The notes under the pieces were generated by a model. That model was given only the letters and a program-made list of their open reading frames with translations. It was not told the DNA's origin and made no database searches. Made by a program: the position numbers and the translations under genes. From the NCBI GenBank assembly GCA_903831815.1, contig CAIKZC010000001.1:85037-149036 (forward strand): a stretch of DNA of 64,000 bases, given 5' to 3'. Of the stretch, positions 5,548-56,221 are shown piece by piece. Source of the DNA: an uncultured bacterium. Lineage in GTDB: Bacteria > Patescibacteriota > Minisyncoccia > Phycocordibacterales > UBA11359. Every line of letters begins with the position of its first letter. Position 1 is the first letter of the stretch.

Positions 5548-5959
5548 GGGGATGATCGGCCTAGACAACTGATTCCCTTCTTGATGTGCGCTATAAGGGT
5601 CCTTGATACCTTCCAATCACCATGGAAATCTAAGTGCTAAAACCTTAGTTGCAAGCGCAAAGTCAACCTTATCTCCATATTTTGGAGCTAAAGACTTCGC
5701 GTTCGCCTACGTTTCTTAACCTAGGCGACGTCTCTCATCCTAATGTTTGGTCAGGATGAAGGGGTGTAATAAATCCAAACTGGAACTTGCGGTTTCTCGG
5801 CGCAAGTTTAAGAACAAGAGGATCGGCGGTGCATGATTTTGTTGGTTTAACCCATGCATTGCCTAAACGCCCACCTACCGGCGGGCACTAAAATCTTCTA
5901 CATAGCGTAGAAACATCAGAAGCATCTTTTGCACGGCGGTTCGATTCCGCCCATCTCCA
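5548..5959 (+). ncRNA. ssrA: Transfer-messenger RNA (tmRNA, ssrA)
   Basis: 5-prime GGGGATG pairs with 3-prime CATCTCC, including the G3-U alanine-identity pair. tRNA-like T arm GGCGG-TTCGATT-CCGCC, discriminator A, no CCA encoded. Length 412 nt, adjacent to smpB. Candidate tag frame ...AKDFAFAYVS ends at TAA 5717-5719 (tentative). Confidence 0.85.
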
Positions 5960-6139
5960 CAGACAAAATAAAAACTGCCCGCTAGGGTGGTTTTTATTTT
6001 GTCTGTAATTGATGATTGCCGGAATCGAAAGCCGGACCGAAGCTGCGATGTGAGCGAAGCGAACCGCAGCGAGGGAGGCGGGGTCGCGCAAAAATTGCGT
6101 AGCAATTTTATGTGTGACCGATGGAGCCTGCCTCCATCA
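5960..6139 (+). repeat. Element A copy 1: AT-rich 15-bp-stem hairpin (5960-6005) plus a 115-nt GC-rich conserved core (6021-6139)
   Basis: About 90% identical to 7345-7517. Several internal hairpins (GCTGCG...CGCAGC; CGCAA-aaa-TTGCG; GATGGAG-n5-CTCCATC). The core begins with GGAATCGAA, part of an inverted copy of the tmRNA T-loop/acceptor. Confidence 0.6.
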
Positions 6140-33008: not shown

Positions 33009-35552
33009 TTATAGAGGAGAAATTCCGAAGCCGGCGCCGAGGTAGTTGACGATATTTCGAGCTTCAAGTTCCGGGCGCCACGTAGCTTGCGATTGCAATC
33101 TCTCGGCGCCGATAAGTGAACTTAAAGTAGCTGATCCACCAATTGAAGCGCTGTAACTTTCGACGGTGCGAGAAACATCAGGGAAAGTAACCGCTTGTGA
33201 CACCGCACCAGTTTCTTTAGAAAGAGTCAGCCAATTGGTAAATGATTTTGGTGCATCCTGAATCATGAACCAATTTGATGCTGCGGCATTAGTGTAATAT
33301 GTGTTGTTGCTGAATGTTGCTCTAGCGGTTGACAATACTCCTTCAGAAGATACGGATGGAGATTGATAAAGCTTATCCTGGAATTTATTTCCAATAACTT
33401 GAATGTTTGTGAGTGGTCCGGCACTCAGCCCCACGAAACCTTGATTCCAATTGTAGAGAACGTTGTTTGAAATGGTGACATTCTGACTGGCCACAATACT
33501 TTCCAATCTGATACCGAAACTTGTTCCATTATTTGGTTTGTTTAGAAGCAAGTTGTTTGTAATGAGACCGCCATTGATACTTCCTAGATCAATTCCATAA
33601 CTTTGATCGGCTCCACCCAGCACTCTTCCTGTTTCAGTTAGCACATTATTCCGAATTGTGGCATCAATTGCACCATACTGAACCGAGGCTCCTTCTCCGG
33701 TTTTTGCGCCAACCGACATACTATTGCCGTTTGCGGCGAGAAGATTATTTTCGATCAGAACATGATTGGTTAGATTAGCGCCATTTTCGCTTCGCACCAA
33801 TATACCCTCACTTGAGGCATTAGAAATAATGTTATTTCTAATCGTGAGGTTCGTCATGTCATCCAGATACATATTGTGACTACGATCATCAGGCACTTGG
33901 AAACCGGTTTTCCAACCATTATGATCGATCACGTTAAATTCAATCAACATACCGTCAGCCGTTGAAGCAAAAATACCTTGCGATTTTGGTCCTCCAGCAT
34001 TGTAAGCATCAAGAATTCTGGAGCCGCGAATTGTGACGTGACTTGGACCTTTAGATGCATTTAGAGATGTGTCAGGTTCAGCTACAAAGTTATCAATAAA
34101 TCCTTCAATCGTACAATTTTCAACTAAGAAATTATTGCCCGAACCGTAAATGAAGATTCCTGTACCGTTTCCTTGACCTACGAGATGAAGTCCGACCATC
34201 GCAACGTTACTGGTGTTAAGTCCGTAAAAGTTTATGCCATTGTTATCCGCCGTTTCCGAAATAATCGGCTGTGCTCCGGTGCCGTAACTTGAAATTAACA
34301 TTTGCGCTGTAGCCAGTCCGGATTTTCGCCAACTGAAACTTTCATTTGTCCATGTGTCCCCTGCTTTGAGAAGCAACCAGTCCGGATAACCGTCACGAAT
34401 TAAAGAATATCCTTTGGCCAGTGTTTTTACCGGATGAGCTGAATCAAGGCCGGTATTGCTATCATTTCCTCCCGAACTACTGACATAGATTTTCTGAGTA
34501 TTGGCAGCGGCAGTGAAAGTTGTCCAGGTTACAGCGCCAGTTGAAGTTGGTGGCGGAACAACTGGTGGCGGAACAACCGGAGGAGCATACGTGCAAGATT
34601 GAGAGGTGACAGGTGTTCCTGTGCAACCAGCTGGAGCTGAAGTATATGTTCTGGTCTGTGTGTTATTTGACTGACAATCACTCCAAGCACCGTAAGTGTA
34701 TGTGCAAGCCTGTACCGGCGGAACATAAGTACAAGATTGTGACGTCACCGGAGTGCCCGTGCAACCCGTTGGAGTTGACGAAGCGACCGTACGAGTTTGA
34801 GTACTGTTTGATGCACAAGTTCCCCATGCACTGTAAGTATAAGTACAAGCTGAAGGAGGAGTAGTTGTCGAAGATTGATAATCAAAAACCACATCAACCC
34901 AATAATTTCGATTATTCCAAGTACTGGTCGGGAAAGTGTTTATATTGTAAACATAAACTCCGTTAGGTCCATTTTTTGTATTACTTGCCAGAGCGCGAAT
35001 AACTCCATTTTTATGAACAGTGCTGAAATAATTAGAATTTACGGCATAGAAACCGTTTGATGTAGAATACGAAGCGATATAAGGAGTATTGGCGGCAATT
35101 GCTATAGGCGTAGAGAAATTGGCGCTTTGCCATCCGGAAGCAGTTTCATTGATAAAAGTTACTGATCCAAGGAGAGCTCCTGTTGTTGTCCAAAGATGAC
35201 CGACGTGAGTGCCGGTATCACCCGGAATTTTATAAAATTGAATTTGTCTGATGTTTCCCGGGACATCGGTGCGAATTCTGACACCCAACTCAACCGGTTT
35301 ACCTGAACCAGTCTCGGAAGGTTTAACCGTATTGTCCCAAAGCTCAGCGGTACTTATCACAGGAGCAGGCGCGCTCTGTGTATTTGTGACCAAAGTCTCC
35401 GTTTGAGGAGTAACTCCATAGAACAAAGCGGCTGTCTGTTCTTGTAAGGCCGGAATTCCGGTATACAGTACATATGCAGCTATAGATATTACGAGCAAAA
35501 CGAAAACCCAGAGAAGAAGACGTTTCATATATTTATTTAAAAAAACGAGCAT
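33009..35552 (-). CDS. Large cell-surface protein: N-terminal TM anchor, two tandem Cys-rich 47-aa repeats, PPVVPPP linker, and right-handed parallel beta-helix (pectin-lyase-fold) repeats
   Basis: 847 aa. Repeated (I/V)xNN(L/V/I) beta-helix rungs (IRNNIISNA, IENNLLAANG, IRNNVLTETG, ITNNLLLNK, ISNNVLYNW). Two 141-nt tandem DNA repeats at about 34570-34850. Confidence 0.65.
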   Translation of the reverse strand: MLVFLNKYMKRLLLWVFVLLVISIAAYVLYTGIPALQEQTAALFYGVTPQTETLVTNTQSAPAPVISTAELWDNTVKPSETGSGKPVELGVRIRTDVPGNIRQIQFYKIPGDTGTHVGHLWTTTGALLGSVTFINETASGWQSANFSTPIAIAANTPYIASYSTSNGFYAVNSNYFSTVHKNGVIRALASNTKNGPNGVYVYNINTFPTSTWNNRNYWVDVVFDYQSSTTTPPSACTYTYSAWGTCASNSTQTRTVASSTPTGCTGTPVTSQSCTYVPPVQACTYTYGAWSDCQSNNTQTRTYTSAPAGCTGTPVTSQSCTYAPPVVPPPVVPPPTSTGAVTWTTFTAAANTQKIYVSSSGGNDSNTGLDSAHPVKTLAKGYSLIRDGYPDWLLLKAGDTWTNESFSWRKSGLATAQMLISSYGTGAQPIISETADNNGINFYGLNTSNVAMVGLHLVGQGNGTGIFIYGSGNNFLVENCTIEGFIDNFVAEPDTSLNASKGPSHVTIRGSRILDAYNAGGPKSQGIFASTADGMLIEFNVIDHNGWKTGFQVPDDRSHNMYLDDMTNLTIRNNIISNASSEGILVRSENGANLTNHVLIENNLLAANGNSMSVGAKTGEGASVQYGAIDATIRNNVLTETGRVLGGADQSYGIDLGSINGGLITNNLLLNKPNNGTSFGIRLESIVASQNVTISNNVLYNWNQGFVGLSAGPLTNIQVIGNKFQDKLYQSPSVSSEGVLSTARATFSNNTYYTNAAASNWFMIQDAPKSFTNWLTLSKETGAVSQAVTFPDVSRTVESYSASIGGSATLSSLIGAERLQSQATWRPELEARNIVNYLGAGFGISPL

Positions 35553-36390: not shown

Positions 36391-37038
36391 CTATTCATGA
36401 AATCCAATTTTTTCTTTTTTCGGTTCTTCCGGTTCCTCCAGTACCGGTTTCTTCAGCCGTTCTAATGATTCCACGGATTCCGCCAGTTTCTCTATAACAC
36501 CAAACACGATTTGAAAATTTTCGCCATATTTTTTCTCCAAATCATCCAGGCGATGAGCGAGTTCGCTATTCAGAGACAAAATCTGGCGCAATTTCACAAA
36601 AGTTTTAATGATGGCAATGCTCATGGCCACTGCCCGCGGGCTATTAAGCACCGTAGCGGCCATAAGCGCACCGTGTTCGGTAAAGGCGTAGGGTAAGAAA
36701 CGACGTTTGCTAAAATTTGCGGTTCCAAATTGGAACCGCAAATTTTGACCCTTTTTCAAGGTCGCAATTTGCGACCTTGAAACCTGATCTTCGTTCAAGG
36801 TTCCAATTTGGAACCTTGAACGAAGATACTCTGCTTCACTTTTTGTAAGCTGAAACATAAATTCTGCAGGAAAACGATCAATATTACGTTGTACCGCCTT
36901 ATTTAAATTCTTTGTCTTTACTCCATACAAACTCGCCAAATCACTGTCCAAAATCACCTTTTGATTACGAATAATTAAAATTATCTGCTCCACCCTCTCC
37001 TCCGGCGCAAGACCCACGCCATTGATATTTTTGTTCAT
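36391..37038 (-). CDS. ORF6N-domain (KilA-N-like) protein, paralog 1, with an in-frame roughly 120-nt palindromic expansion
   Basis: ...IRNQKVILDSDLASLYGVKTKNLNKAVQRNIDRFPAEFMFQLT...RFLPYAFTEHGALMAA... is the ORF6N signature. It carries an extra segment QIGTLNEDQVSRSQIATLKKGQNLRFQFGTANFSK relative to paralog 2 (55468-55974). Confidence 0.75.
   Translation of the reverse strand: MNKNINGVGLAPEERVEQIILIIRNQKVILDSDLASLYGVKTKNLNKAVQRNIDRFPAEFMFQLTKSEAEYLRSRFQIGTLNEDQVSRSQIATLKKGQNLRFQFGTANFSKRRFLPYAFTEHGALMAATVLNSPRAVAMSIAIIKTFVKLRQILSLNSELAHRLDDLEKKYGENFQIVFGVIEKLAESVESLERLKKPVLEEPEEPKKEKIGFHE
36710..36827. repeat. Three consecutive long palindromes (35, 29 and 41 nt) inside the ORF6N paralog-1 CDS
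   Basis: aaaatttgcGGTTCCaaattGGAACCgcaaatttt; tttcaaGGTCGCAAtttGCGACCttgaaa; atcttcgttcaaGGTTCCAAtttGGAACCttgaacgaagat. Confidence 0.8.
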
Positions 37039-55143: not shown

Positions 55144-55365
55144 TTATTTTATTTTCTTAGCAAGCTCACGCAAGTCACCATAAAGAACTTTTCCTTCTCC
55201 TAACTCGCTTTCGGCTTGGAGAACAGCATTAACCGCCTCGTCCTCAGCAAAATGATCGAGAGCTTTGTGTACAACTTCAACTTTGTTATTTGCATTTCCA
55301 GCTTTTATATAGGCCGCAATAAAGGCTTCTTGTTTTGCGGTAATTGATATTGATAACGTAGTCAT
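55144..55365 (-). CDS. Ribbon-helix-helix (ParD/CopG-like) small protein, translationally coupled (TAAtATG) to the DGR target
   Basis: 73 aa. TLSISITAKQEAFIAAYIKAGNANNKVEVVHKALDHF aligns with ParD-family antitoxin ...[33 protein letters not shown]. Confidence 0.5.
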   Translation of the reverse strand: MTTLSISITAKQEAFIAAYIKAGNANNKVEVVHKALDHFAEDEAVNAVLQAESELGEGKVLYGDLRELAKKIK

Positions 55366-55414: not shown

Positions 55415-55445
55415 CAGGAAATCTTGAGGTCGCAATTTGCGACCT
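55415..55445. promoter_or_regulatory. 30-nt perfect palindrome ATCTTGAGGTCGCAATTTGCGACCTCAAGAT between ORF6N-2 and the RHH gene (terminator and/or operator)
   Basis: Core GGTCGCAATTTGCGACC is identical to the core of the 36752-36780 palindrome. TATAAT at about 55388 (minus strand) lies downstream of it. Confidence 0.5.
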
Positions 55446-55467
55446 CAAGATTTACTAACAAGCTATT

Positions 55468-55974
55468 TTACCCATGAAAACCAATTCTCGGTTTTTCCTT
55501 CTCTTTTGGTTGAATTGGAGGTTCCATAAGTTGTTTTATAGCTCGAAAAACAACTTGAAAATGTTGATCGTATTTTTTCTCCAACTCATCCAATCGACGA
55601 ACCAAGTCTTTGTTAACAGAAAGAATTTGGCGCAATTTTATAAAAGTCCTTACTATTGCCACACTCATAACAATAGCTTGTGGACTGTTTAATACGTTAG
55701 CCGCCATCAATGCACCATGCTCAGTAAATGCATATGGCAAGTAACGACGCCCGCCATAACTTGAGGTCACAAATTGTGACCTCAAGTTTTGCACTTCTTC
55801 CAAACTCAACTGAAACATAAAATCTTCAGGAAAACGATCAGGATTCCTTTTAACTGCCTGATTTAAAACCTTTGTCTCCACACCATACAAATTTGCCAAA
55901 TCCCTGTCCAAAATCACCTTTTGATTACGAATAATTAAAATTGCCTGTTCTACCCTCTCCAGTTTTTTATTCAT
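55468..55974 (-). CDS. ORF6N-domain (KilA-N-like) protein, paralog 2
   Basis: ...IRNQKVILDRDLANLYGVETKVLNQAVKRNPDRFPEDFMFQLS...LRSQFVTSSYGGRRYLPYAFTEHGALMAANVL. The LRSQFVTSS motif is encoded by the 27-nt perfect palindrome CTTGAGGTCACAAATTGTGACCTCAAG (55769-55795). Confidence 0.8.
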   Translation of the reverse strand: MNKKLERVEQAILIIRNQKVILDRDLANLYGVETKVLNQAVKRNPDRFPEDFMFQLSLEEVQNLRSQFVTSSYGGRRYLPYAFTEHGALMAANVLNSPQAIVMSVAIVRTFIKLRQILSVNKDLVRRLDELEKKYDQHFQVVFRAIKQLMEPPIQPKEKEKPRIGFHG

Positions 55975-56048
55975 CCCAAAACCGTAGCATTTTGGAGATA
56001 AAATATTTATAAAATCTATTTGATATTTTTTATATTTTATTTAATGCG

Positions 56049-56149
56049 GAAGACTATGCCTTGAAGGGTGCCTTGCGCAGCGCGACTGGCGCGAGCGGAG
56101 CGGACGGCCAGTAGGCCGGAACGCGTGCATCCCAAAAGACATAGTCTGC
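56049..56149 (+). repeat. Element B copy 3
   Basis: Closing stem AGACTATGCC...GACATAGTCT. Core near-identical to copy 1, with GGCCagtaGGCC. Followed by terminator AAAAAACCACCgagcGGTGGTTTTTT at 56165-56200. A TTGATA-17-AATGCG promoter-like sequence sits upstream at about 56009-56040. Confidence 0.65.
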
Positions 56150-56221
56150 AGCATTTACATACAAAACAAAAAACCACCGAGCGGTGGTTTTTTGTTTTGT
56201 ATTTATGTTTTTGCTTTCAGA

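Follow-up and report, generated by a model that had tools for sequence, protein, structure and literature searches.

The DNA examined here, a 64,000-nt stretch referred to as the window (contig CAIKZC010000001.1 of GenBank assembly GCA_903831815.1, positions 85,037 to 149,036, from an uncultured bacterium of the Minisyncoccia), was found to carry two genes of the ORF6N family in which part of the coding sequence is a perfect DNA palindrome. Paralog 1 (36391..37038, minus strand) encodes 215 amino acids (aa) and has three palindromic units in the segment coding for its wing loop, and paralog 2 (55468..55974, minus strand) encodes 168 aa and has one unit. Both were located in the list of open reading frames (ORFs), modelled with AlphaFold and assigned to Pfam ORF6N (PF10543), with E-values of 4.6e-31 (107.4 bits) and 5e-36 (123.3 bits), respectively, the gathering cutoff being 27.8. 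The proteins are 54% identical, as deduced from their alignment, and differ mainly by 28 additional residues in paralog 1 between the sequences FMFQL and LPYAFTE, with further gaps near the C-terminus. The loop from FMFQL to LPYAF spans 50 aa in paralog 1 versus 22 aa in paralog 2, a net surplus of 28 aa or 84 nt, smaller than the insert of about 120 nt and 40 aa proposed in a preliminary description of this DNA.

In gene order, unit 1 of paralog 1 (36787..36827, centre 36807) is a perfect odd palindrome of 41 nt with 20-nt arms that are 100% complementary; it has the core GGTTCCAAWTTGGAACC, encodes ...YLRSRFQIGTLNED and gives a single-strand DNA hairpin of -21.4 kcal/mol (z -10.1). Unit 2 (36754..36782, centre 36768), recognized by reading of the sequence and by an exact core match, is a perfect odd palindrome of 29 nt with the core GGTCGCAAWTTGCGACC that encodes VSRSQIATLKK (hairpin -14.6 kcal/mol, z -8.5). 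Unit 3 (36712..36746, centre 36729) has the core GGTTCCAAWTTGGAACC in a perfect odd palindrome of 35 nt with 17-nt arms, also 100% complementary, and encodes NLRFQFGTANF (hairpin -17.6 kcal/mol, z -7.2). These extra in-frame palindromes of 35, 29 and 41 nt had been correctly recognized in the preliminary description; they had been taken there as nested and are in fact arranged in tandem, side by side, with their centres exactly 39 nt (13 codons) apart. The array as a whole forms a weak larger palindrome with 47-nt arms that are 77% complementary. An origin of the array as an inverted duplication around unit 2 was considered and dropped, as the spacers are unmatched and the 77% palindrome is accounted for by the units themselves.

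The single unit of paralog 2 (55758..55788, centre 55773, core GGTCACAAWTTGTGACC) is perfect over 31 nt, longer than the 27 nt given previously, and encodes NLRSQFVTSS, so that the palindromic encoding of the LRSQFVTSS motif is borne out. Its perfect stem of 15 bp compares with a mean of 4.6 in the shuffle test described below, and its DNA hairpin is of -14.9 kcal/mol. The near-copy noted beyond the stop codon of this gene was also found, as a non-coding perfect palindrome of 35 nt (55419..55453, centre 55436, core GGTCGCAAWTTGCGACC; hairpin -18.1 kcal/mol, z -11.7) located 14 nt past the stop and here designated the twin. Relative to the intragenic copy it has a compensatory pair change, A/T to G/C. 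Overall, the DNA hairpins of the window palindromes range from -14.6 to -21.4 kcal/mol, with z between -7 and -12. The pattern GGTNNCAANTTGNNACC occurs at five sites in the window, compared with 0.11 expected, and all five are at the two ORF6N genes. The window palindromes are real and far above chance.

In the AlphaFold models, the motif of paralog 2 (residues 67-76) lies in a loop with a predicted local distance difference test score (pLDDT) below 50. As to the form of the paralog 1 insert, a point raised in the preliminary description, the expanded segment (about residues 84-116) was modelled as coil with pLDDT 44-58.

The two window genes belong to a very large family, as more than 8,000 sequence clusters were matched in each of two protein searches. 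The search with paralog 1 retrieved thousands of ORF6N proteins, the closest named homologue being from Candidatus Taylorbacteria, and the FMFQL-LPYAF loops of the homologues contain 1 to 5 copies of the sequence L-[RK]-[SFCY]-Q-[FI]-[VAG]-T-[SL]. For analysis at the DNA level, homologues were sampled from species-representative genomes (80) and metagenomes (80), in addition to several on plasmids of cultured bacteria. This set covers more than 10 phyla, including Nitrospirota, Acidobacteriota, Verrucomicrobiota, Planctomycetota, Pseudomonadota, Bacteroidota, Omnitrophota and lineages of the Candidate Phyla Radiation (CPR); the loci were chosen by protein similarity to this subfamily, with more distant ORF6N members sampled only anecdotally, and gene calls at the loci came from anchor-based parsing.

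A palindrome is present at the homologous position, namely where the loop joining the FMFQL and LPYAFTE strands is encoded, in 133 of 136 recognizable ORF6N genes when at least 10 of 13 arm pairs are required, and in 121 of 136 when at least 11 of 13 are required. Its consensus is TTGAGGTCRCAAWTTGYGACCTCAA, of which the middle 17 nt constitute the core GGTCRCAAWTTGYGACC, and its arms are usually of 12-17 bp and perfectly Watson-Crick. In the shuffle test, synonymous codons were resampled from the usage of each locus with the protein sequence kept fixed. The mean perfect stem in the 136 genes was 11.4 bp in the frame designated A and 10.5 bp in the frame designated B (see below), compared with 4.5 and 4.4 bp in the shuffles, and 90 of the 136 genes reached the smallest attainable p (<=0.005). 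As the stems are far longer than in the synonymous shuffles, the palindromy exceeds what the peptide demands. The preliminary description had set its palindromic element against ordinary sequence shared by orthologues without palindromic constraint; the segment is indeed shared by homologues, and the constraint on it is very strong.

The same palindrome was found to be translated in two reading frames. In frame A (104 genes) its centre is at codon position 1 and the product is LRSQ[FI][VA]TS (L-R-S-Q-F/I-V/A-T-S). In frame B (17 genes) the centre is at codon position 2 and the products are of the type EVVANCDHL, ELVTNCDRF and ELVPIWHQF; in a large subfamily the reading is GAG GTG GTC GCA AAT TGC GAC CAC CTC, giving E-V-V-A-N-C-D-H-L, and the GC/GC arm variant in this frame gives E-L-V-P-I-W-H-Q-F (locus L151). 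At one locus (L113) a frame-B unit is followed, 32 nt on and within one gene, by a frame-A unit. The translation of one palindrome in a second frame implies that the "conserved protein motif" is a by-product of the DNA element.

Variation within the palindrome is coordinated between its arms. The inner variable pair covaries between the arms as CA/TG, CG/CG, TC/GA, GC/GC or AC/GT, and the outer arms fall into the classes TTGAGG, TTTAAGG, TTCAAGG, GAACCGG, GAGGTGG and ATTGGAGG, with the core GGTCRCAAWTTGYGACC fixed throughout. In 153 motifs, the partner of S is A or V in 92 of 94 instances, that of C, F, Y, I or R is G in 54 of 54, and that of L or P is A in 5 of 5, a covariation of residues expected when a codon's third base is paired with the second base of its partner codon. 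In Treponema the CAA/TTG that is invariant elsewhere has become AAA/TTT on both arms, with Q replaced by K and 13 of 13 pairs kept. In Segatella copri the encoded peptide, EVIKKFDNL, is unrelated, yet a palindrome with 12 of 13 pairs (GAGGTTATCAAAAAATTTGATAACCTC) is retained.

These data leave hardly any room for selection at the protein level, by which LRSQFVTS would be a functional peptide repeat, for example a wing contacting DNA, and the palindrome a coincidence of codons. The motif does belong to the Pfam ORF6N profile and is located in the wing region of the winged helix, followed by basic residues (GGRR). As a sufficient cause, however, such selection is ruled out by the frame-B genes, in which the same DNA gives an unrelated peptide, and by the shuffle test, with stems of 4.5 bp against about 11 bp observed; in addition, non-coding copies exist, the residue covariation obeys base-pairing rules, and the pLDDT of the segment is below 50. 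The conserved entity is the DNA palindrome and not the peptide, and the Pfam "motif" LRSQFVTS is its translation, placed in a structurally tolerant loop.

The number of in-frame copies varies from 1 to 5, paralog 1 being a three-unit member of the series. In the five-unit gene (P0099, locus L345) the units are spaced by 42, 36, 42 and 36 nt and all are in frame A. Only the additional units are polymorphic among homologues, the basal unit being constant in position. The preliminary description had likened the insert to Rickettsia palindromic elements, and a mobile in-frame palindromic element of this kind, or of the MITE (miniature inverted-repeat transposable element) or repetitive extragenic palindromic (REP) type, was considered, together with a variant in which the palindromes are recombination or transposition sites that move an ORF6N cassette. 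Differences in extra in-frame units between close relatives, extragenic copies on one or both sides of the gene, and the occurrence of ORF6N genes as solitary genes in unrelated contexts, in tandem arrays, on plasmids and on phage-like contigs would all suit such mobility. It nevertheless appears very improbable, since 133 of 136 genes share the codon position of the basal copy, the five window sites are all at the two ORF6N genes, the units are of only 27-41 nt and lack terminal repeats, target duplications or the REP-type GTAG/CGTC tag, and comparison of flanking ORFs gave no conserved transposase or recombinase nearby. The likeness to the Rickettsia elements is likewise not supported, failing on dispersal within the window, on unit size and on insertion polymorphism of the basal copy.

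Extragenic copies of the palindrome were detected at about one fifth of the genes. Eighteen are upstream and end 10-76 nt ahead of the likely start codon, and five upstream copies, from different phyla, are at -269 or -270 relative to the internal site. Eleven are downstream, 8-134 nt past the stop codon, some of them in arrays of two or three. A preference for a reading frame was looked for in the extragenic copies and none was found. Their consensus is again TTGAGGTCRCAAWTTGYGACCTCAA, with A at the centre 19 times and T 19 times; as the copies were selected by a CAANTTG-like centre, the conservation at positions -3 to +3 is partly circular, while that of the arm positions is not. Examples on plasmids include a conjugative plasmid of Legionella pneumophila, with an internal site and a copy 18 nt past the stop, and Butyrivibrio proteoclasticus pCY186, in which one atypical arm, ATCGAGATGCCAA, is common to the internal site and a copy 29 nt ahead of the start.

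Non-coding palindromes of differing arm classes stand beside the gene at 36-nt spacing at L013 (953, 989, 1025), and at spacings of 57-136 nt at L076 (2007, 2064, 2133) and L079 (1246, 1382). The non-coding arrays of these three loci are counterparts of the in-frame one in paralog 1. Two copies at one locus differ only slightly less than two taken from different loci (2.9 versus 3.6 differences per 10 nt, p ~0.01), and every copy is internally symmetric despite this weak likeness. Concerted evolution within the locus was thus seen only as a weak signal, so that recent duplication of the internal copy does not by itself account for the extragenic ones.

Copies placed in this manner could act in the transcript, where a stem in the 5' untranslated region near the ribosome-binding site, a stem within the gene and a 3' stem would control mRNA stability, translation or processing (e.g. 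by RNase III), possibly with binding of the mRNA by its own protein product. Every copy is within or adjoins the transcription unit, at the distances from start and stop codons given above, and the RNA stems are very stable, the array of paralog 1 folding at -73.6 kcal/mol (z -11). On the coding strand, however, 31 G:T and 37 A:C mismatches occur among 1716 pairs; as G:T is not above A:C, pairing of G with U in a sense RNA is not favoured. The equal frequency of A and T at the centre indicates that there is no strand polarity, and the conservation of the core sequence includes the would-be loop AAWTT, which a plain stem would not need. No Rfam family matched the palindromes at gathering thresholds over the whole window, and an E-value search beside paralog 2 returned only sub-threshold noise. 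The twin downstream of paralog 2 is accepted, on the gene strand, by a terminator scan with loose settings, and in viral contigs the core is often in terminator-like hairpins with A and T runs between co-directional genes; a T tract (at least five T in the next 8 nt) follows none of the 127 internal, 18 upstream and 11 downstream sites. On these data an intrinsic (rho-independent) terminator was rejected, the T tract lacking after all 156 sites, as was a known RNA family, for want of an Rfam match; a structured cis-regulatory RNA is not supported, given in addition the mismatch counts and the symmetric centre. Hairpins acting in RNA are consequently an unlikely explanation of the element.

The 17-nt core was also sought in viral contigs, where GGTCRCAAWTTGYGACC was found in at least 120 stretches, versus 37 and 18 for two composition-matched control palindromes. 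In viral contigs the core is therefore not specific for ORF6N. Of the non-redundant viral core sites, about 60% fall between genes with no ORF6N gene near them, and many resemble terminators. In contigs L165-L284 (for example L202 at 10730, L229 at 5426 and L239 at 1855) the intergenic core hairpins are flanked by A/T runs (AAAAAGAGGTCGCAAATTGCGACCTCTTTTT) and occur 14-50 nt after one gene and ahead of the next, and no ORF6N gene is within reach. Matches inside genes for ribonucleotide reductase, a glycosyltransferase, a helicase and a PD-(D/E)XK nuclease mostly end at the core and look like chance. In Escherichia coli a single weak intergenic core match, on a P1-like plasmid, was uninformative. 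A separate observation concerns the viral contig IMGVR_UViG_3300046… (L250, site 6110), in which a 261-aa protein with a Bro-N domain (...KHVDGEDKLGSQIATSGQNREMTVINESGLYSLVLSSKLPSAK...) has the same palindrome, GCTGGGGTCGCAAATTGCGACCTCAGG, with 12 of 13 pairs. As this palindrome is in a loop equivalent to the ORF6N loop, the feature may extend to related DNA-binding families.

For the ORF6N protein an N-terminal domain of two strands and two helices plus a wing is predicted, with a helix of 35-60 residues after it. A search for solved structures by sequence similarity found none, and the best structural matches, of modest Z (6.7 to about 4.5), were the DNA-binding domain of pSK1 Par with centromere DNA (PDB 8csh), MerR-family regulators, RacA, TnrA/GlnR and excisionases. 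All of these are dimeric binders of repeated or palindromic DNA. On this basis the protein would have a MerR/Par-like winged helix-turn-helix and, after it, a long coiled coil, an arrangement suggestive of a symmetric dimer. No catalytic domain was recognizable by Pfam in the ORF6N proteins of this subfamily.

In an all-against-all BLAST of 148 flanking ORFs, with no Pfam run on the neighbours, ORF6N was the only conserved neighbour family, and the ORF6N protein is accordingly the sole locus-encoded candidate for a partner of the palindrome. The gene contexts are unrelated between loci, from housekeeping genes, an abortive-infection gene and a type I restriction-modification operon to tiny plasmids of two genes; no neighbour recurs apart from a further ORF6N gene, and tandem arrays, plasmids and phage-like contigs were also seen.

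Several of these contexts deserve separate mention. Two very small plasmids carry an ORF6N gene, that of Segatella copri (L081, NZ_CP152486, 4140 bp) and NZ_CP152354 (2955 bp); in NZ_CP152486 the only annotated genes are those for a replication initiator and the ORF6N protein, which hints at a role in plasmid maintenance or copy control. The ORF6N gene of Treponema (L341) lies within a type I restriction-modification operon, with genes for the methyltransferase and a small winged helix-turn-helix protein on one side and that for the S subunit on the other. Longer ORF6N proteins (about 275-330 aa) occur in Treponema saccharophilum pTS1 (L341, NZ_AP025289, 300419-301315) and at L083, L342 and L340, and share a C-terminal domain with the motif HDRF(L/M)I(I/V)D...GASLKDLGKK.

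A conserved DNA palindrome able to form a hairpin is thus a component of ORF6N genes at a fixed position, and belongs to the gene at the level of nucleic acid. As for its function, the leading reading is that the protein recognizes a site within its own gene, which is compatible with all of the findings. In its specific form, to which we would give an even chance, the element would be a cis-acting double-stranded DNA site for the ORF6N dimer itself, serving autoregulation or the assembly of a complex on its own locus. The evidence pointing this way is the conservation of the core in non-coding copies, their placement next to start and stop codons, the strand symmetry, the predicted architecture of the protein and the lack of any other conserved partner.

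The predicted dimer would bind its palindromes within the gene, downstream of it and, ahead of it, at the promoter or 5' end, and such sites would give autoregulation or a nucleoprotein complex on the locus. Arrays, such as the three units of paralog 1, could raise local occupancy, and a gene with a built-in site would stay functional after transfer anywhere. The symmetry of the outer arms may derive from their potential to form a hairpin or cruciform, maintained by selection, by templated correction of quasi-palindromes (intrastrand template switching) or by both, and template switching may also lengthen the arms, from 27 to 41 nt, and seed adjacent units.

Several points weigh against a dimer site. 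Binding of a dimer alone does not need perfect symmetry of the variable outer arms, which differ within a locus; as this symmetry is unexplained by the dimer, a constraint of hairpin or mutational type must act too, and it could be the whole story. A site located 190 nt inside the coding region is an odd place for an operator, and only about one fifth of the genes have extragenic copies. The core is also found at the viral intergenic terminator-like hairpins that have no ORF6N gene nearby. Finally, the palindrome is missing in Haliovirga and Alistipes and in 3 of the 136 genes at the looser threshold; among the plasmid examples, it is missing in 2 of 8.

If the mutational constraint were indeed the whole story, the palindrome would be functionless and self-perpetuating, an ancestral chance quasi-palindrome that was perfected, lengthened and duplicated by intrastrand template switching and tolerated in a disordered loop. 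Neighbouring copies that are perfect yet unlike in arm length and sequence, as in the 35-, 29- and 41-nt units of paralog 1, are what this would produce, and it would fit with the fast shifts in copy number among close relatives (1 to 5), with the relic peptide kept in some lineages after loss of the palindrome and with the low pLDDT of the loop. Symmetry by itself does not account for the conservation of the 17-nt core sequence across more than 10 phyla and through a change of frame, nor for non-coding copies that hold the same consensus at particular spots by start and stop codons. Long perfect palindromes are normally unstable in bacteria, and their persistence argues for selection. We therefore regard a functionless palindrome as improbable.

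Returning to a site for the ORF6N dimer, a broader and more doubtful proposal is that ORF6N is a self-contained one-gene module with its cis site in the coding sequence. The arrays, whether in-frame or flanking, would then tune a function, for example segregation or anchoring of a plasmid or mobile element in the manner of pSK1 Par, or self-silencing, and extrusion of the hairpin or cruciform would be part of recognition. If such a module exists, it would represent a general and so far undescribed route by which constraints on nucleic acid shape "conserved protein motifs", in which a DNA element outlasted a change of frame and created the signature motif by which databases know the family; related families may share it.

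Other features of the window were noted in passing. Just past paralog 2 and its twin, a 73-aa ORF (55144-55365, minus strand) resembles by eye an antitoxin of the ribbon-helix-helix or ParD type. The interval separating the rpsG terminator from the start of paralog 2 has a stretch of about 110 nt (56040-56150) that is G+C-rich in A+T-richer surroundings and folds as a long closed stem (-52 kcal/mol, z -4.3, minus strand), with no Rfam match above noise. Downstream of rpsG, a perfect 20-bp stem with A and T runs on both sides (56159-56202, ATACAAAACAAAAAACCACCGAGCGGTGGTTTTTTGTTTTGTAT) has the look of a bidirectional terminator. An 847-aa secreted-looking protein (33009-35552, minus strand) contains two tandem Cys-containing repeats (ACTYTY.AW..C.SN.TQTRT..S.P.GCTGTPVTSQSCTY), a PPVVPPP linker and a region resembling a right-handed beta-helix. 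The window also includes genes for a tRNA-Ile with the anticodon TAT (UAU), at 2574-2648, and for a tmRNA (79 bits), at 5548-5962; the UAU anticodon is an uncommon bacterial means of reading AUA.

In this large Pfam family it is a DNA palindrome, and not the protein, that keeps the signature "protein motif" conserved, which bears on how motifs are read in annotation, in structure prediction and in analyses of evolutionary rate. The consensus TTGAGGTCRCAAWTTGYGACCTCAA provides a concrete candidate target for uncharacterized and very widespread small DNA-binding proteins, whose carriers include plasmids, phage-like contigs, restriction-modification operons (one example read) and CPR genomes. The element is, moreover, a natural case of one DNA sequence read in two frames and multiplied in frame, useful for work on templated mutation, on the stability of palindromes and on how much protein loops tolerate. 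The literature available in full text on ORF6N, Bro-N and coding palindromes, subscription journals being outside this coverage, did not describe the ORF6N palindrome, and comparison was accordingly made with known systems that share one or more of its properties.

Rickettsia palindromic elements are similar in that palindromic DNA occurs in frame within coding sequences and adds a peptide in a surface loop, leaving the protein intact. They are, however, of about 100-150 bp, are dispersed over many unrelated genes of one genus and are missing from orthologues, whereas the ORF6N element measures 27-41 nt, is limited to a single gene family and the adjoining DNA, and was ancestrally present where it is found. 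REP sequences and bacterial interspersed mosaic elements (BIMEs), with their REP-associated tyrosine transposases (RAYTs), offer short (20-40 nt) hairpin palindromes with covarying arms clustered round a particular gene. REPs are extragenic, have hundreds of copies, a GTAG/CGTC tag and a gene of the IS200/IS605 type, none of which applies to the ORF6N element: TTGAGGTCRCAAWTTGYGACCTCAA is without the tag, its copies are mostly intragenic, and the only conserved flanking family is ORF6N, distant RAYT genes not having been searched. Templated mutagenesis of quasi-palindromes, reportedly described by Ripley and by the Lovett laboratory, in which one arm is corrected against the other, would yield both perfect symmetry and seemingly compensatory double changes in one step; as a mutational process it leaves unexplained the conservation of the core and the placement of the non-coding copies.

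The remaining systems concern cis sites and the proteins that act on them. Replication origins are embedded in the initiator gene in pT181 repC and phiX174 gene A, which resemble the ORF6N genes in having a hairpin-forming cis site in the coding sequence of the acting protein; these proteins are nicking initiators (HUH/Rep), unlike this ORF6N subfamily with its lack of a recognizable catalytic domain. pSK1 Par constitutes a single-protein plasmid partition system, the centromere of which is upstream of the gene and untranslated, unlike the ORF6N palindrome; pSK1 Par, RacA and TnrA/GlnR have no detectable sequence similarity to ORF6N and match its fold weakly. In Bacillus subtilis and many other bacteria, the coding sequence of parB/spo0J reportedly contains parS sites (Lin and Grossman 1998, Livny et al. 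2007). There, a short palindromic site is found inside the gene of its own binder, as proposed for ORF6N, and, as in ORF6N, is conserved at the DNA level across phyla and has further copies elsewhere. Conservation of DNA beyond the needs of coding, as with parS in parB, is seen for ORF6N in the shuffles, in the two frames and in the non-coding twins. The parS site is of 16 bp, is read in one frame, is not multiplied in frame and has proven binding by ParB, whereas the ORF6N palindromes measure 25-41 nt with perfect symmetry and have two reading frames, and the site is putative. By analogy, the closest functional counterparts would be parS in parB/spo0J and the single-protein pSK1 Par with its centromere repeats, the initiator-embedded origins offering a looser parallel.

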